This document shows, one piece after another, positions 1-5,263 of a stretch of DNA of 5,263 bases. This DNA comes from a virus. Its lineage: Duplodnaviria; Heunggongvirae; Uroviricota; Caudoviricetes. The DNA lies in the IMG/VR virus record IMGVR_UViG_2778261676_000009, one strand, 5' to 3'. A model generated the notes under the pieces. That model was not told the origin of the DNA. It saw only the letters and a list, made by a program, of their open reading frames with translations, and did no database searches. Position 1 is the stretch's first letter; each line of letters begins with the position of its first letter. Made by a program: the position numbers and the translations under genes.

Positions 1-15
1 ATGGGGGAAGGTGAG

Positions 16-333
16 GTGAATAAAATAGCTGCTATATCATTAATTAGTGTTTTTCTTATGTCTGGTTGTGCTGTGCATAATGATGAGACAAGTATCGGTA
101 AATTTGGCCTTGCATATAAAAGTAATATTCAGCGTAAACTCGATAACCAATACTACACCGAAGCCGAAGCTTCTTTAGCCAGGGGTAGAATATCTGGTGC
201 AGAAAATATAGTAAAAAATGATGCAGCCCATTTCTGTGTTACTCAGGGCAAAAAAATGCAAATAGTTGAGCTGAAGACAGAAGGTGTAGGATTACATGGT
301 GTCGCTCGTCTGACATTCAAATGTGGAGAGTGA
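16..333 (+). CDS. yegR: Small putative lipoprotein (YegR-like, about 105 aa from the GTG start); host gene flanking the prophage
   Basis: ORF in frame 1 ending TGA 331-333. N-terminus has a hydrophobic signal segment (KIAAISLISVFLMSGC) ending in a lipobox-like Cys. GTG at 16-18 is preceded by a purine-rich SD-like GGGGAAGG (3-11), whereas the ATG at 1 sits at the window edge with no visible upstream context. AT-rich composition differs from the GC-rich phage tail genes. The yegR assignment is from recalled E. coli K-12 context (yegR next to the P2 remnant genes yegZ/ogrK) and matching length, not from a search. Confidence 0.6.
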   Translation: MNKIAAISLISVFLMSGCAVHNDETSIGKFGLAYKSNIQRKLDNQYYTEAEASLARGRISGAENIVKNDAAHFCVTQGKKMQIVELKTEGVGLHGVARLTFKCGE

Positions 334-395
334 GAATATTTTTTGGTAAGCGTCAAATATGTGCGTTCTGGTTGTGCTTAGCCGGAACCTGTGCG

Positions 396-428
396 AGCAC
401 GATGCCGTTACGTGAAAGGCATCGTGCT
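396..428. repeat. Perfect 11-bp inverted repeat (AGCACGATGCC / GGCATCGTGCT) with 11-nt spacer; potential stem-loop or protein-binding site
   Basis: Read directly: 396-406 is the exact reverse complement of 418-428. Not followed by a T-run on either strand, so not a canonical intrinsic terminator. Confidence 0.5.
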
Positions 429-491
429 ATGAAGGGAGATTCTATCGATGTGGTCAATGGAAGACGGTGACCAGGGATAGGGCTTATGCAT

Positions 492-518
492 AAAAAATAA
501 GCCCGTGTAAGGGAGATT
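492..518. other. Candidate P2-type attachment-site core (attL junction): AAAAAATAAGCCCGTGTAAGGGAGATT
   Basis: The 27-nt string lies about 80 bp beyond the 3' end of int, where the P2 att core is expected, since int is transcribed toward att. It matches my recollection of the P2 core, but that recollection may be contaminated by reading the sequence. A composition shift from AT-rich host-like flank to phage DNA occurs here. Exact core boundaries are not verifiable without the other junction (attR) or an empty-site sequence. Confidence 0.45.
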
Positions 519-597
519 TAGGGTGTCACCAGTAGGGGCTTTCAACGGTACAATGCGGGTTTGAGCGGCATAAATTACCACTGAAAGCCCTTAAACG

Positions 598-1611
598 TTA
601 CTCTACTGTGGACACTGTGTGGACACTCTCGGCCTCAGTACCACCTCTTAGCGGATTAAGAGAAATGGCGTCCTGAAGGTACTCTGGCGCAAAATGAGCG
701 TAAACCATAGTTTGCTCAATCCGCGTGTGACCTAGTATCCGTTGTAGCGTGATAATACTTCCTCCATTAATCATGAAATGAGTGGCAAAGCTGTGCCTTA
801 GTGCATGTGTGGCTTGCCCCATTGGCAAATCCGGTTTTATTGCTTTCATTGTTCGTCTGAAGCGAGGGTAATCAGCATCAGGGAATAAAAAACCTCGTTT
901 GTTATCCGCGATCATTTTGGCAACAGCCTCTGAGATCGGGACGGTGCGTGGTTTGTTTGTTTTCGTTTTAACAAACGTGACGCGGTTATGGATGATATTT
1001 TCTGCTTTCAAACGAGCTGCTTCTCCCCAACGTGCTCCAGTACTCAGGCAAAGAATCGCAATCTTTTTGTTGTCGCCGTCAAGAGCAGCAAGCAGTAAGG
1101 CAATTTCTTCCTGCGTGAGATAGCCTGTGTCTGGTTTTTCCTCCTTAAGCCTTTTTGTCCCTCTGATAGGGTGCTCACCAAAGAATAACTCCGCTTCAAT
1201 CAGGGCTGTAAACATGCCGCTAATACATGTTAAATCACGATTGATACTCGAAGGTTTAATACCCTGACTTCTTCGGGTGGCGCAGTACTGGCTGATAAGC
1301 GATTTCGTAATTTGAAATGCGCATGGGTCATTCGTTATTTTTGTGAAGATTTCAATTTTTCCAAGATTAGATTTCCCATGCTCTTCGTGTTTACCCTTTA
1401 AATCCCACCAGATCTGTGTCAGCTCCGACAGACGTCGCTTGTCTGTTGGTTTTGATAGCCATTCTTTATTGTGGTGGTTGTACAACGTGTATTTCTCGAA
1501 AGCGACAGCTTCGCTTTTCTTATCAAACTTCCTACGGATGCGTTTTCCATTACGTCCAGTAGGGCGGATGTCCACTTCATATCGACCATCATCGAGTTTT
1601 TTGATTGCCAT
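598..1611 (-). CDS. int: P2-type tyrosine integrase (site-specific recombinase), 337 aa, apparently intact
   Basis: 337-aa ORF, the length of P2 Int. C-terminal catalytic signature of tyrosine recombinases is present (TGARWGEA arginine; HALRHSF His-x-x-Arg; LGHTRIEQTMVYAHF with the catalytic Tyr). Strong SD (GGAGGG, about 8 nt spacer) upstream of the ATG on the minus strand around 1617-1622. Positioned next to the att core and downstream of the C repressor gene, as in P2. Confidence 0.95.
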   Translation of the reverse strand: MAIKKLDDGRYEVDIRPTGRNGKRIRRKFDKKSEAVAFEKYTLYNHHNKEWLSKPTDKRRLSELTQIWWDLKGKHEEHGKSNLGKIEIFTKITNDPCAFQITKSLISQYCATRRSQGIKPSSINRDLTCISGMFTALIEAELFFGEHPIRGTKRLKEEKPDTGYLTQEEIALLLAALDGDNKKIAILCLSTGARWGEAARLKAENIIHNRVTFVKTKTNKPRTVPISEAVAKMIADNKRGFLFPDADYPRFRRTMKAIKPDLPMGQATHALRHSFATHFMINGGSIITLQRILGHTRIEQTMVYAHFAPEYLQDAISLNPLRGGTEAESVHTVSTVE

Positions 1612-1664
1612 CAGAAAACCCTCCGAGTGGTGTGTTTTTTTGCGACTACTAATCGCTTTTTTCG

Positions 1665-1687
1665 TGGTGGCTGAAATTTAGCCACCA
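1665..1687. repeat. 8-bp perfect stem (TGGTGGCT / AGCCACCA) with 7-nt loop in the C-int intergenic region
   Basis: Read directly from sequence. Lies within the presumably cotranscribed C-int leader on the minus strand. The T-run precedes the stem on the + strand and an A-run follows it on the minus strand, so it is not a canonical terminator in either direction. Confidence 0.4.
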
Positions 1688-1704
1688 ATAGTAGGCACTT
1701 GTGA

Positions 1705-1716
1705 TGAATATATTCA
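1705..1716. repeat. 12-bp perfect palindrome TGAATATATTCA immediately downstream of the C stop codon, flanked by a GATGAAT direct repeat (1703-1709 and 1718-1724)
   Basis: Read directly from sequence; AT-rich dyad typical of a protein-binding site. Function unknown. Confidence 0.4.
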
Positions 1717-1726
1717 CGATGAATTG

Positions 1727-2026
1727 TTAACCAGTCTTTTGACCGGAGTGGGGCGACGTTGTTTCGTTTTGCCCAAAGTGTGCGAGAGCGGGCGCAATTT
1801 GCCCGGACTCAGGAGCGATCTGATTGGTCATGAACCATAAAGTGTATTTGGTGAATTGTGGGGTCTGCAGGATGTTCATCATGACATCTGTTGGAGGTGT
1901 TGAACGACCACTTTCATAGTAACTCAGCGTGCCATACGGAACCCCTGTTAAATCAGCAAGTTGTTGTCTGCTCAAATACTCTGATTTTCGCATTAAGACT
2001 ATCTTCTCGCTTATCGTGTTTGACAT
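1727..2026 (-). CDS. C: P2 C-type immunity repressor, 99 aa, apparently intact
   Basis: 99-aa ORF, the length of P2 C. N-terminal helix-turn-helix-like segment (LSRQQLADLTGVPYGTLSYYESG). Located upstream of int on the same strand and directly abutting a promoter/operator region with direct-repeat operators, as in the P2 immunity region. Confidence 0.9.
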   Translation of the reverse strand: MSNTISEKIVLMRKSEYLSRQQLADLTGVPYGTLSYYESGRSTPPTDVMMNILQTPQFTKYTLWFMTNQIAPESGQIAPALAHFGQNETTSPHSGQKTG

Positions 2027-2059
2027 GGTGTTTAGATCTCAATAGTATTTAGTTTAGAT
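2020..2059 (+). promoter_or_regulatory. Candidate early promoter Pe (rightward) with two direct-repeat operator half-sites
   Basis: -35 TTGACA at 2020-2025 (overlapping the C start codon on the other strand), 17-bp spacer, -10 TAGTAT at 2043-2048. Direct repeats TTTAGAT at 2031-2037 and 2053-2059 are exactly 22 bp apart and flank the -10, matching the known P2 arrangement of C operators O1/O2 as direct repeats around the Pe -10. Confidence 0.6.
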
Positions 2060-2091
2060 GTAGATTATTTAGTGCTTGGATGTGGGCACTA

Positions 2092-2126
2092 AAAGGCATT
2101 ATAAGACATTAAACGCAATTCATGAG
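2092..2126 (-). promoter_or_regulatory. Candidate repressor promoter Pc (leftward), face-to-face with Pe
   Basis: Perfect TATAAT on the minus strand at 2103-2098. No good -35 at 16-18 bp spacing (best is CTCATG/TCATGA at about 2120-2126). Predicted start near 2091 would give roughly 35 nt overlap with a Pe transcript, consistent with the convergent P2 switch. The -35 region may coincide with a deletion junction. Confidence 0.35.
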
Positions 2127-2527
2127 GGCTAACGTCTTTTGCCTTGAGCACCATTGCGGTTTTCATTTCCGGTGTGTAGCGGATATCGCGCGCGGCGGGA
2201 TAGAACGAGCGCACGAGCTGGAACACGCCGACACCGAGGCCGGTGGCATCAATACCGATGTATTCGACGTTGTATTTTTCGGTGAGTTTGCGGATGGATT
2301 CCGCCTGAGTGGCAAAGTCCATGCCTTTCCACTGGTGACGCTCAAGTATTCTGAATTTGCCACCGGCCACCACCGGCGGTGCCAGTACCACGCATCCGGC
2401 GCTGTCGCCACGGTGTGACGGGTCGTAACCAATCCATACCGGACGTGAGCCGAACGGATTGGCGGCAAACGGCGCATAGTCTTCCCATTCTTCCAGCGTG
2501 TCGACCATGCAGCGTTGCAGCTCCTCA
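2092..2527 (-). pseudogene. Internal fragment of a phage terminase large subunit (N-terminal part of the RNase H-like nuclease domain); both ends missing
   Basis: Minus-strand ORF 2089-2574 contains two motifs typical of terminase nuclease domains: VWIGYDPSHRGDSAGCVVLA (hydrophobic strand, Asp, small residues) and YIGIDATGLGVGVFQL. There is no ATPase/Walker region upstream and only about 45 residues after the second motif, so it is a fragment. Boundaries are approximate: the last roughly 10-20 codons probably read through into the Pc/Pe region, and the first roughly 15 codons overlap the next fragment. Strand matches the leftward P gene of P2 prophages. Confidence 0.55.
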
Positions 2528-2823
2528 ACCGGTGTTAAACCGCGTATTCTTGGTGTGCCGGGGCTGGATACCAAAGAGGTGGCTGTTGCACTGGCATCAG
2601 TCTGTCAGAAGCTGCGCGCTTTCGGATATATCAGCGCATGGGGCTGTAAAACCATTTCCGAGGTGAAAGCCTACCGCCAGAATTTCAGCCAGCGTGAGCT
2701 GATGGTCATCTGGCCGGATTTCCTCGCATGGGATACGGTCACCAGTACCACCGCCACCGCGTATGCCACCGCCCGTGCGCTGGGTCTGCGTGCCAAAATC
2801 GACCAAGAGCAGGGCTGGCATAA
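2528..2823 (+). pseudogene. Internal fragment of a phage structural protein (possibly tail sheath FI-like); no credible start, ends at an out-of-frame junction
   Basis: Frame-2 reading gives protein-like sequence (PRILGVPGLDTKEVAVALASVCQKLRAFGYISAWGCKTISEVKAYRQNFSQRELMVIWPDFLAWDTVTSTTATAYATARALGLRAKIDQEQGWHKTL) with balanced composition, unlike the His/Arg-rich junk in the other overlapping frames. The frame is interrupted relative to the downstream T frame (TAA at 2821-2823 in frame 1). The sheath assignment is a weak recollection only. Confidence 0.4.
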
Positions 2824-3606
2824 AACGCTGTCCAACGTCGGGGTATCACCGGCATTAATGCCATCATCGCGGCAGCAGGCGCAATGGGTGCAATCTTCAC
2901 GACGGTTGGCAGTGCCGTTATGACGGCCATCGGGGCGATTAGCTGGCCGGTTGTGGCTGTGGTGGCCGCCATTGTCGCCGGGGCGTTGCTTATCCGTAAA
3001 TACTGGGAGCCTGTCAGCGCATTCTTTGGCGGTGTGGTTGAAGGGCTGAAAGCGGCATTTGCGCCGGTGAGGGAGCTGTTCACGCCACTGAAACCGGTGT
3101 TTGACTGGCTGGGCGAAAAGTTACAGGCCGCGTGGCAGTGGTTTAAAAATCTGATTGCCCCGGTTAAAGCCACACAGGACACCCTGAACCGTTGCCGTGA
3201 CACGGGGGTCATGTTCGGGCAGGCACTGGCTGACGCGCTGATGCTGCCGCTTAATGCGTTCAACAAACTGCGCAGCGGTATTGACTGGGTACTGGAAAAA
3301 CTCGGGGTTATCAACAAAGAGTCAGACACACTTGACCAGACCGCCGCCAGAACTCATGCCGCCACGTATGGCACCGGTGGTTATATTCCGGCGACCAGCT
3401 CTTATGCAGGTTATCAGGCTTATCAGCCGGTTACGGCACCGGCTGGCCGCTCTTATGTGGACCAGAGTAAAAACGAATATCACATCAGCCTGACGGGTGG
3501 TACTGCGCCGGGGACACAGCTTGACCGCCAGTTACAGGATGCGCTCGAAAAATACGAGCGGGATAAACGTGCGCGCGCCCGTGCCAGCATGATGCATGAC
3601 GGTTAA
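2824..3606 (+). pseudogene. T: C-terminal about 260 codons of the tail tape measure protein (gpT); 5' two-thirds of the gene deleted
   Basis: Frame 1 is open from the TAA at 2821-2823 to the TAA at 3604-3606. It has a Gly/Ala-rich hydrophobic segment (GAIFTTVGSAVMTAIGAISWPVVAVVAAIVAGALLI) typical of tape measure proteins, and sits immediately upstream of U and D as in P2 (T-U-D). Full-length P2 T is about 815 aa, so only the C-terminal third remains. First in-frame ATG is at 2884. Confidence 0.75.
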
Positions 3607-3611
3607 GGAGG
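3605..3611 (+). promoter_or_regulatory. Ribosome-binding site (AAGGAGG) for gene U
   Basis: Consensus Shine-Dalgarno 9 nt upstream of the ATG at 3621, overlapping the T stop codon. Confidence 0.7.
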
Positions 3612-3620
3612 TGACGAAAA

Positions 3621-4100
3621 ATGATGCTCGCGTTAGGTATGTTTGTTTTTATGCGCCAGACGCTGCCACACCAGACCATGCAGCGTGAATCAGATTATCG
3701 CTGGCCGTCAAATTCCCGTATCGGCAAACGGGATGCCTTTCAATTTCTCGGTGTGGGTGAGGAAAACATCACGCTTGCCGGTGTGCTTTATCCCGAACTG
3801 ACCGGCGGCAAGCTGACGATGGCCACGCTCAGGCTGATGGCAGAGGAAGGCCGGGCGTGGCCGTTGCTGGATGGCACCGGCATGATTTACGGCATGTATG
3901 TCATCAGCAGGGTGAGTGAAACAGGGAGTATTTTCTTTGCAGACGGCACACCCCGGAAAATTGATTTTACGCTGTCGCTCACCCGCGTTGATGAATCACT
4001 GGCCGCGCTTTATGGCGATATCGGTAAACAGGCGGAATCGCTCATCGGTAAGGCTGGCAGTATGGCGACTAAATTCACGGATATGACGGGGGCGGGATAA
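3621..4100 (+). CDS. U: P2-type tail protein gpU, 159 aa, apparently intact
   Basis: 159-aa ORF with a strong SD, matching the length and position of P2 gpU between T and D. Stop TAA 4098-4100 overlaps the D start (TAATG), indicating translational coupling. Confidence 0.9.
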   Translation: MMLALGMFVFMRQTLPHQTMQRESDYRWPSNSRIGKRDAFQFLGVGEENITLAGVLYPELTGGKLTMATLRLMAEEGRAWPLLDGTGMIYGMYVISRVSETGSIFFADGTPRKIDFTLSLTRVDESLAALYGDIGKQAESLIGKAGSMATKFTDMTGAG

Positions 4101-5263
4101 TGCTGGATGCACTGACATTTGATGCAGGCAGTACGCTGACGCCGGATTACATGCTGATGCTCGACAGCAGGGATATTACCGGCAATATCAGCGACCGTCT
4201 GATGAGCATGACCCTGACGGATAACCGGGGCTTTGAGGCTGACCAGCTTGATATTGAACTGAACGATGCCGACGGGCAGGTCGGGCTGCCGGTTCGTGGC
4301 GCTGTCCTGACGGTGTATATCGGCTGGAAAGGTTTTGCCCTGGTATGCAAAGGGAAATTTACCGTTGATGAGATTGAACACCGGGGCGCACCGGATGTGG
4401 TCACCATCCGCGCCCGGAGTGCAGATTTTCGCGGGACGCTCAATTCCCGCCGTGAAGGCTCCTGGCATGACACCACGCTCGGTGCGATTGTTGAGGCGAT
4501 AGCCTCCCGTAACAGGCTGGAAGCCAGTGTCGCTCCGTCACTGGCCGGAATTAAAATCCCGCACATCGACCAGTCGCAGGAGTCAGATGCGAAATTCCTG
4601 ACCCGTCTTGCTGAACGCAACGGCGGTGAGGTGTCGGTAAAAATGGGAAAACTGTTGTTTCTCAAAGCGGGGCAGGGGGTGACGGCCAGCGGTAAAAAAA
4701 TCCCGCAGATTACCATCACCCGCAGCGACGGCGACCGTCATCATTTTGCGATTGCTGACCGTGGAGCCTATACCGGCGTAACGGCAAAGTGGCTTCACAC
4801 CAAAGACCCGAAGCCGCAAAAGCAGAAGGTAAAACTGAAACGCAAAAAGAAAGAGAAACACCTGCGCGCACTGGAACACCCGAAAGCGAAACCGGTCAGG
4901 CAGAAGAAAGCGCCTAAAGTACCGGAAGCGCGTGAAGGTGAATACATGGCCGGTGAGGCTGACAACGTTTTTGCCCTGACCACGGTATATGCCACGAAAG
5001 CGCAGGCCATGCGCGCCGCTCAGGCGAAGTGGGATAAGCTGCAACGGGGCGTTGCGGAGTTCTCCATCAGTCTGGCTACCGGTCGTGCTGATATTTACAC
5101 GGAAACACCGGTTAAAGTGTCAGGCTTTAAGCGCGTCATAGACGAGCAGGACTGGACAATCACTAAGGTGACACATTTTCTGAATAATAGCGGCTTCACG
5201 ACGTCCTTGGAGCTTGAGGTCAGGCTTTCTGATGTGGAGTACGAAACAGAAGATGATGAGTGA
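4100..5263 (+). CDS. D: P2-type tail protein gpD (Phage_GPD family, baseplate hub-like), 387 aa, apparently intact
   Basis: 387-aa ORF, the length of P2 gpD, immediately after U with the ATG overlapping the U stop. Ends TGA 5261-5263 at the window edge. Contains a highly basic Lys-rich segment (residues about 235-277). In P2 the next gene downstream would be ogr, outside this window. Confidence 0.9.
   Translation: MLDALTFDAGSTLTPDYMLMLDSRDITGNISDRLMSMTLTDNRGFEADQLDIELNDADGQVGLPVRGAVLTVYIGWKGFALVCKGKFTVDEIEHRGAPDVVTIRARSADFRGTLNSRREGSWHDTTLGAIVEAIASRNRLEASVAPSLAGIKIPHIDQSQESDAKFLTRLAERNGGEVSVKMGKLLFLKAGQGVTASGKKIPQITITRSDGDRHHFAIADRGAYTGVTAKWLHTKDPKPQKQKVKLKRKKKEKHLRALEHPKAKPVRQKKAPKVPEAREGEYMAGEADNVFALTTVYATKAQAMRAAQAKWDKLQRGVAEFSISLATGRADIYTETPVKVSGFKRVIDEQDWTITKVTHFLNNSGFTTSLELEVRLSDVEYETEDDE

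Follow-up and report, generated by a model that had tools for sequence, protein, structure and literature searches.

Locus and features

The window, by which we mean the whole analyzed stretch of 5,263 nucleotides, starts in chromosomal DNA and continues into phage DNA, its last base belonging to the stop codon of phage gene D. Comparison with phage P2 (NC_001895) using blastn yielded four blocks, which are collinear, all on the same strand, and in prophage gene order. Window positions 491-2131 correspond to P2 24355-25995 (99.5% identity), 2127-2532 to P2 1451-1856 (98.0%), 2527-2844 to P2 18032-18349 (96.2%), and 2841-5263 to P2 21532-23954 (97.0%). A search with Rfam returned no RNA families in the window. 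The following features were found:

1-333, plus strand: host gene yegR (matching E. coli records carry this annotation; Pfam PF27694 YegR in the identical locus L007)
492-518: attL core, 27/27 match to the P2 attP core, AAAAAATAAGCCCGTGTAAGGGAGATT
535-632: attL Cox-binding region and Int P' arm sites (P2 annotation mapped onto the window with zero mismatches)
598-1611, minus strand: int, full length, 337 aa (Pfam Int_N and Phage_integrase)
1727-2026, minus strand: immunity repressor gene C, 99 aa, identical to P2 C
2020-2123: switch region with Pe -35/-10, operators O1 and O2, and Pc -10/-35, all identical to P2
2130-2131: junction J1, P2 25995 joined to 1456, C-cox intergenic region joined to gene P, shared TA
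2132-2526, minus strand: internal fragment of gene P (terminase large subunit), P2 1456-1850, residues ~382-513 of 590
2526-2527: junction J2, P2 1850 joined to 18032, P joined to FI, 0 bp exact microhomology
2527-2843, plus strand: internal fragment of the tail-sheath gene FI, P2 18032-18348, residues 127-233 of 396
2844: junction J3, P2 18349 joined to 21536, FI joined to T, one shared T
2845-3606, plus strand: 3' third of the tape-measure gene T, P2 21536-22297, residues ~563-815 of 815 (31%)
3621-4100, plus strand: gene U, full length, 159 aa (Pfam Phage_P2_GpU; 3 substitutions, stop-free)
4100-5263, plus strand: gene D, full length, 387 aa (Pfam Phage_GPD; 4 substitutions, stop-free)

At the left end, yegR (annotated start at base 16) is the chromosomal flank and lies outside the prophage, and bases 334-491 are host DNA downstream of it. 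An earlier note on this DNA had placed the beginning of the prophage at 334; the remnant is real, but phage DNA begins only at the attL core. The same 27-mer also forms attR in L007, where the 27/27 core adjoins yegQ, and thus both attachment sites share the 27-bp core of P2 at its known integration site. In L007, ogr and attR lie about 80-430 bp past base 5263, and the prophage therefore exceeds the window. Compared with P2, positions 491-2131 contain eight differences, seven of which are clustered in int between 1039 and 1129 and have the appearance of a conversion patch. A single substitution (E161D) distinguishes Int from its P2 counterpart. The start of cox (P2 26005) falls within deleted DNA.

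The P piece (395 bp) follows C after about 105 bp. Its minus-strand orientation agrees with that of gene P in P2, and the product called there has a Pfam Terminase_6C entry. The piece sits inside a chimeric ORF (2089-2508 or 2089-2574), and the FI piece (318 bp) is read by another one (2498-2923). In the T piece the longest ORF comprises 240 aa (2884-3606). The P, FI, and T pieces should be annotated as fragments of pseudogenes, and neither of the two chimeric ORFs should be listed as a gene.

The earlier note had proposed a P2-family origin and had listed a terminase fragment on the correct strand after int and C, a structural-protein fragment, the C-terminal third of T, and intact U and D, in prophage order. 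All of this was borne out: every fragment is 96-99.5% identical to P2 (blastn), the structural protein is the FI tail sheath, and the stretch 2092-2823 is natively contiguous in no related phage.

Identity of the element

Similarity, gene order, and orientation mark the element in the window as P2-like, and, judged from its sequence, it is very probably a cryptic Peduovirus (P2-type) prophage remnant, located at the P2 attachment site between yegR and cyaR/yegQ (trhP) in a small and almost clonal lineage of E. coli. Intact Peduovirus prophages, e.g., that of strain KE58, and P2 itself share with it the gene order, the att core, Int, and C, and the retained blocks are 96-99.95% identical at the nucleotide level, whereas the window misses 85% of the genome. 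It is not a functional prophage, as P2 25996-33593, 1-1455, 1851-18031, and 18350-21535 have no counterpart in the window according to blastn. The same comparison with P2 speaks against a satellite, with cos, A, and B all absent, and against a tailocin, with FII and the baseplate genes absent and FI reduced to 318 bp. Missing from the remnant are cox, B, A, cos, and Q, the greater part of P, every head, lysis, baseplate, and fiber gene, as well as FII, E, and two thirds of T.

Junctions and deletions

The junctions were placed by base-by-base reading, and microhomology was scored against P2, from which the true parent may differ. J1 and J2 fall within the ranges predicted in the earlier note (2104-2150 and 2500-2560), while the third predicted junction exists but lies at 2844, 4 nt outside the range 2821-2840. 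The deletion at J1 removed about 9,053 bp, comprising cox, B, A, old/tin, cos, and Q together with the 3' end of gene P, and its exact microhomology is the TA of 2 bp only. At J2, about 16,181 bp were removed, with the 5' portions of both P (P2 1851-2993) and FI and, between them, genes O to G and Z/fun. The deletion at J3 comprises about 3,186 bp and joins FI to T in a different reading frame. Together, the three deletions account for about 28.4 of 33.6 kb. For deletion by slipped mispairing, direct repeats of several bp would be expected at both parental ends; beyond the exact overlaps of 2, 0, and 1 bp, the comparison with the P2 sequence showed imperfect matches (GGnTA at J1 and AAC(C)GG at J2), and close to J3 the sequence ACCGGCAT is shared at an offset.

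Two established ways of deletion do not fit. From 491 on, the window is fully P2-homologous with zero extra DNA, which speaks against IS-mediated deletion; in contrast, the remnant of strain Br_178 carries IS1 and IS21. Int is known to promote deletions that are anchored at att, examples being lambda deletion mutants in which one of the ends lies at att, and P2 'eduction'. The remnants of K-12 (PR-X), XJ34, and DSM 103246 conform to this pattern, with a break directly after CCCGTGTA in the core. In the window, by contrast, the attL core is complete and every junction is internal, and none of the three deletions is anchored at att.

We propose that a full-length prophage of the P2 immunity type was converted to the remnant by three internal collinear deletions. 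Illegitimate recombination is the presumed route, because the joints have just 0-2 bp of exact homology. Both ends were probably spared since a deletion across either of them would harm host DNA. The retention of the module boundaries, which the earlier note had emphasized, is better explained by this constraint, i.e., a deletion cannot extend into the adjoining host DNA with yegR at the left and cyaR/yegQ at the right.

Copies of the remnant and the search for a parent

The same 5,263 bases occur on about 21-25 public contigs, which stem from independent NCBI assemblies and from SRA-derived contigs. The sequence is identical in GCA_002518735.1 and GCA_023967315.1, GCA_907175645.1 differs at 1 base, and Logan assemblies from separate sequencing runs also carry the identical sequence. 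In the identical loci L007, L009, L011, and L041 the host context is yegS-yegR at one end and ogr-attR-yegQ at the other.

None of the three junctions was present in 5,426 complete E. coli genomes (megablast with the whole window and with 2030-2950), and exact 29-mers across J1, J2, and J3 retrieved no relative with a junction from collections of metagenome, species-representative genome, and viral contigs. Look-ups of exact protein matches to the P' chimera, to the T' product, and to D found neither an intact parent nor an intermediate, and the same was true for the inspected members of the truncated terminase cluster. The earlier note had the interior removed in several steps; three deletions are evident, but sequential deletion is undemonstrated because none of these searches turned up an intermediate that has just one or two of the junctions.

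Strain KE58 contains a near full-length prophage at the same site, the left end of which is 99.95% identical to the window. However, the identity is only 97.3% for the P block, about 95% for FI, and 98.1% for T-U-D, and KE58 was ruled out as the parent because near-identity is confined to the left block. The blocks are thus unequally distant from both P2 and KE58 (left 99.5-99.95%, rest 95-98%), which implies that the parent was a mosaic relative or that parts were swapped later.

Alternative origins

All three junctions could have arisen in one complex event of serial template switching during replication or break repair (FoSTeS/MMBIR-like), with three forward skips and stretches of 395 and 318 bp copied en route. 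The fragments are short, collinear, and in the same orientation, the junction homology is just 0-2 bp, and neither the 5,426 complete genomes nor the three contig collections yielded an intermediate with only some of the junctions. However, the missing intermediates are weak evidence for a lineage that is present on only about 25 contigs, and in other strains the number of junctions per remnant at this site ranges from one to three, in many different combinations, as would be expected from stepwise decay. We regard a single event as unlikely.

Somewhat less likely still is a patchwork generated by homologous exchange among P2-like prophages or remnants, in which at least some junctions were imported. 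The uneven identities to KE58 and the cluster of differences in int would agree with such exchange, as would strain PE15, which harbors remnants at two separate loci, their Q-P' segments being identical. Yet, the three junctions were seen nowhere else in the collections searched, and uneven identity needs no special event, as P2-like phages are generally mosaic.

The intactness of int, C, U, D, and ogr, and the persistence of D-ogr or parts thereof in most remnants at the yegR-yegQ site, might indicate a domesticated module kept by selection, C for immunity and U-D-ogr for some benefit to the host. We consider this improbable. The copies are identical or nearly so, which leaves purifying selection unmeasurable, K-12 and others retain just a fragment of D, and the position beside attR and cyaR accounts for the retention; moreover, to our knowledge U and D have no function without the remaining tail. 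Lastly, an assembly or scaffolding artefact has practically no chance of being correct, as it is refuted by the identical sequence in the independent NCBI assemblies and the separate-run Logan assemblies.

Expected properties of the remnant

A prophage reduced by three internal deletions, as preferred here, would be dead and locked in place, because it lacks cox, the replication genes, cos, the capsid and lysis genes, and most tail genes; it should be unable to replicate, to package, to lyse the host, or to build particles. Excision of P2 requires Cox and cox has been deleted, so that the element is not expected to excise. The repressor C is probably still made from the intact Pc, conferring immunity to P2-type phages. 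Pe is also intact and would now read into the antisense P piece and then, in sense orientation, into FI', T', U, D, and ogr, under repression by C. The host strain is therefore likely to be immune to P2-type phages, with the preferred P2 site taken.

Other remnants and recurrent break points

The yegR-yegQ site contains at least nine further remnants with different deletions, among them PR-X of K-12. PR-X (the yegZ D' pseudogene and ogrK) stems from the same phage family, lies at the same yegR-cyaR/trhP site, has kept the right end D-ogr-attR, and is non-functional, like the window. In contrast to the window, with its attL, int, and C intact and its three internal junctions, PR-X measures only about 0.64 kb, lacks int, C, U, and the greater part of D, and has a single left junction within the att core, where CCCGTGTA is followed by GCAGAG and D begins at P2 23742. 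The same type of decay as in the window was found in nine E. coli remnants (GPEC1292, FDN-24, FG92-1, XJ34, DSM 103246, PK8276, Z226-5, PE15, and NCTC9100), often with two or three junctions and short gene pieces. The junction combination of the window occurs in none of these nine. Nevertheless, the FI break point is shared with FDN-24 (P2 18033) and the T break point with XJ34 (P2 21536), while the partners on the opposite side differ and the sequences differ by 2.7-6.3%.

Break points were found to recur to the base in independent remnants, the FI and T ends of the window included. A site in gene P at about 1502 was joined to eight different partners, further recurring break points are P 2117, U 22409, and U 22671, and the att core served as a break point three times, K-12 PR-X included. 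At six sites, the break is directly preceded by CGKKTA, oriented like CCCGTGTA of the att core, and at two further sites, FI 18032 being one, this motif is present on the other strand. Many break sites lie within short inverted repeats. The recurrence in the yegR-yegQ series of P2 remnants far exceeds chance. It is conceivable, although we hold it somewhat less probable than the opposite, that deletions in P2-like prophages are non-random, a few preferred nucleotides being re-used independently across unrelated E. coli lineages and chromosomal sites.

One apparent hot spot was discarded: T 21472-21536 in L008 and L012 reflects ascertainment, as these loci were retrieved via the identical 240-aa T' ORF. 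The T coincidences of XJ34 and L072 are unaffected by this.

Candidate agents would be the integrase acting at secondary sites, another recombinase or a nuclease, or hairpin processing. The integrase pseudo-site idea is weakened: the gene P site matches the att core at 13 of 27 positions, which is not outstanding, and P~1502 junctions were also found in prophages inserted at pflB and fieF, which have different att cores. Hairpin propensity at the break points showed a modest enrichment (KS p=0.018), which is confounded by GC content.

Several other ideas were rejected. A 'homology boundary' at the gene P sites turned out to be an artefact of exact-match search patterns. Selection of P-truncated elements for one third of the genome length (P4-size packaging) disagrees with estimated sizes of about 11.3 to more than 14 kb. 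Chi or cos, compared by eye, showed no convincing likeness that would explain the fixed ends, and the gpA nick site bears no resemblance to the sequence at P~1502.

On its own, the window is one more cryptic prophage from ordinary decay and is chiefly useful for correct annotation. The yegR-yegQ site, however, offers a natural series of independently decayed P2 prophages. The pattern of recurrent break points would point to sequence- or structure-specific cutting or strand transfer as a main driver of prophage decay, and, if a defined enzymatic or structural mechanism is responsible, the dismantling of prophages would become experimentally testable in a classical model phage.

Structure of the P2 remnant

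The sequence was compared with the genome of phage P2 (NC_001895) using blastn, and the content of the matching blocks was assigned from the P2 annotation. From window position 491/492 to the end, it consists of four blocks of P2 DNA with nothing left over, all in a common orientation and in the order of the integrated P2.

Features of the window (identities are to P2)
1-333: host gene yegR, left chromosomal flank
491-2131: att core, int, C and Pe/Pc switch; P2 24355-25995; 99.5% identity
2127-2532: minus strand, as in P2; interior of the terminase gene P; P2 1451-1856; 98.0% identity
2527-2844: interior of the tail-sheath gene FI; P2 18032-18349; 96.2% identity
2841-5263: 3' third of T, followed by U and D through the D stop codon; P2 21532-23954; 97.0% identity
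2089-2508/2574: minus strand; chimeric ORF, P' product with a new C-terminus from C-cox intergenic DNA
2498-2923: plus strand; chimeric ORF of 141 codons, antisense P to FI' to out-of-frame T

An earlier note had described a P2-like prophage that was reduced to int-C plus a T fragment, U, and D by at least three internal deletions. The alignment supported this interpretation: the P2-family origin and the prophage gene order were confirmed, the C-terminal third of T is indeed followed by intact U and D, and three junctions between separate P2 fragments (J1, J2, and J3) could be placed to the base. An Rfam search found no RNA families in the window. For yegR, an upstream in-frame ATG at the window start gives 110 codons; the RefSeq start is at base 16 (105 codons).

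The junctions were then read base by base against P2. At J1 (...CATGAGGGCTA joined to ACGTCTTT), the match to the C-cox intergenic region extends to window 2131 (P2 25995) and the match to gene P begins at 2130 (P2 1454), only TA being common to both. At J2 (...GCAGCTCCTC joined to AACCGGTGTT), gene P matches to 2526 (P2 1850) and FI from 2527 (P2 18032), with zero bases in common and only a gapped likeness, GAACGG versus TAACCGG. At J3 (...GTCGGGGT joined to ATCACCGG), FI matches to 2844 (P2 18349) and T from 2844 (P2 21535), with one T in common; the 8-mer ACCGGCAT is present in both parents a few bases downstream, out of register. Scored against P2, the true parent being a P2 relative, all three joints are products of illegitimate recombination, with next to no homology. 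The deletions at J1, J2, and J3 comprise, in P2 coordinates, about 9,053, 16,181, and 3,186 bp, respectively. The remaining 5,173 bp equal the attL-to-attR distance measured in L007, a near-identical copy of the remnant in another assembly.

Surviving genes and predicted state

Int is full length with a single change from P2 Int (E161D), the C protein does not differ from P2 C, and U (159 aa) and D (387 aa) contain three and four substitutions, respectively, and no stop codons. Of the eight nucleotide differences from P2 in the block 491-2131, seven are clustered in a 91-base stretch of int (1039-1129), and only one of them alters the protein, a pattern suggestive of a short patch of recombination. 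No difference from P2 occurs in the att core, the Cox-binding sites, the P' arm, Pe, O1, O2, or Pc. Because J1 lies 7-8 bp past the -35 hexamer of Pc, C retains its whole transcription unit, but cox has been lost. Excision of P2 requires Cox, and therefore we infer that the remnant cannot excise; it would also be unable to replicate, package, or lyse. P2 immunity is probably still conferred. Pe, under C repression, would now be directed first at the P piece, in antisense, and after it at FI', T', U, D, and ogr in the sense orientation.

The FI and T pieces are in different frames: that of FI closes at 2923, and in that of T the longest ORF begins at 2884. The two chimeric ORFs, which some gene callers report as genes, are by-products of the joints.

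Occurrence of the remnant

All 5,263 bases were found with 100% identity in L009 (SRR26082290), L011 (GCA_002518735.1), and L041 (GCA_023967315.1), and L007 (GCA_907175645.1) differed at one base (99.98%). For each of two proteins, the chimeric P' product and the exact D sequence, about 21-25 contigs were recorded, always in the arrangement of the window. None of the three junctions was present in 5,426 complete RefSeq E. coli genomes, and exact 29-mers over each junction were absent from metagenome, species-representative genome, and viral contig collections. Based on this absence, the remnant is a property of a small, near-clonal lineage. A parent prophage or an intermediate was not found in the same genomes and collections. 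The near full-length prophage of strain KE58 occupies the same site with an identical flank; its left block is 99.95% identical to the window, and its other blocks are 95-98% identical.

The gene context is yegS-yegR-remnant-ogr-attR-yegQ-yegP-baeR. Upstream of yegS, the lineage of the window carries a Mannitol_dh/FGGY kinase/MFS/HAD sugar-alcohol operon (L007, 858-5746), and other strains carry gat (L002-L004, 1-2629). A ParD/ParE toxin-antitoxin pair lies between yegQ and yegP in L002, L004, L006, L012, L028, and L029; it is absent from the lineage of the window and from K-12.

Other P2 remnants at the yegR-yegQ site

Across strains, the yegR-yegQ site harbors a range of differently deleted P2 remnants.

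Remnants at the yegR-yegQ site (P2 coordinates; a slash marks a junction)
GPEC1292: int-C joined to U'-D, 26027/22409
FDN-9, FDN-24: int to orf81, then 27682/FI 18033...18511/D 23484
Br_178: retains int; IS1 and IS21 insertions
PK8276: int 24605/U 22671
Z226-5: int 24734/D 23463
FG92-1: P 2627/FI 18220, T 20970/D 23765
L008: P 1504/T 21521
L012: FI 18017/T 21472
S19-141: FI 18522/T 20179
XJ34: att core/T 21536, left junction in att core (L028, 3500-3510)
DSM 103246 and 7 others: att core/I 12398, I 12670/T 20169, T 20677/U 22671 (L039, junction 1790-1800)
K-12 PR-X, annotated cryptic prophage: att core/D 23742 (L027, MG1655 2167183-2167820)

The window thus adds one more member to a known kind of decay series; prophage degradation in general (PMC6379469) and P2-like cryptic prophages (PMC3448106) have been treated before. 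In EC2001 (L037, yegQ site; locus 3873-4622), inverted pieces of T (P2 22297-22135) and N-M (P2 5258-4670) lie between gene P and U, showing that rearrangements at this site go beyond deletions.

Recurrent break points

In independent remnants, several break points agreed within 1-4 bases, each with a different partner opposite. In gene P, at P2 about 1502-1506, the break directly follows CCGG[C/T]GTGTA (L008, L030-L034, L045, L064, L069). Eight partners were observed (P 2538, FI 18475, FII 19067, T 20593, T 21296, T 21521, 22302, and U 22409), in prophages at three chromosomal sites (yegQ, pflB, and fieF). The adjoining Q-P' segments are 2.5-4% apart pairwise, except for two copies inside PE15. 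The two PE15 remnants (L030, L032; pflB and yegQ sites) have identical cos-Q-P' regions (0 differences in 1,301 bp) and the right partners T 20593 and FII 19067, which suggests copying between loci. The P fragment of the window begins at P2 1456 and hence not at this site.

Two of the ends in the window do recur: FI 18032 (window 2527) is also found in FDN-24 (P2 18033) with another left partner, the FI pieces being 93.7% identical, and T 21536 (window 2844/2845) is shared with XJ34 (left, att core) and the viral contig L072 (left, P 2117), the T-U-D identities to the window being 96.8-97.3%. P 2117 has two partners (T 21149 and T 21536), as do U 22409 and U 22671. When 56 break points were each placed randomly inside their own gene, six recurrent sites were observed versus 1.3 expected (P=0.0009), and four versus 0.74 once the gene P and att sites had been left out (P=0.004); L072 joined the set after this permutation test.

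The att core is broken after CCCGTGTA in K-12, XJ34, and DSM 103246 (and seven others), the partners in the three named strains being D 23742, T 21536, and I 12398. Breaks at this one base are as expected for integrase-anchored deletions, and for the att-anchored cases an integrase that acts on secondary sites is an appealing cause. The gene P site shares the hexamer CGTGTA with the att core, but agrees with it at only 13 of 27 positions, and most gene P junctions reside in prophages whose att cores differ. CGKKTA, a motif picked after the data had been seen, ends at the break on the top strand at 6 of 43 distinct sites (0.31 expected), as it does in the att core, and occurs on the opposite strand at two further sites, including FI 18032. 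Hairpin propensity could also underlie the breaks: many lie within short inverted repeats (GCCGGT-TATC-ACCGGC at T 21536, CGGT-A-ACCG at FI 18032), yet the enrichment is only modest. Chi and cos, compared by eye, and the gpA nick site bore no convincing likeness to the break sites. Descent from shared ancient junctions cannot explain how a single fixed end came to have many partners, except if later events struck that base anew; selection for one-third genome length did not fit the estimated sizes, and a "homology boundary" proved to be an artefact of the search patterns used.

In summary, the window contains a cryptic P2 remnant of an ordinary type whose arrangement is new; among these results, only the recurrent break points might surprise a specialist.
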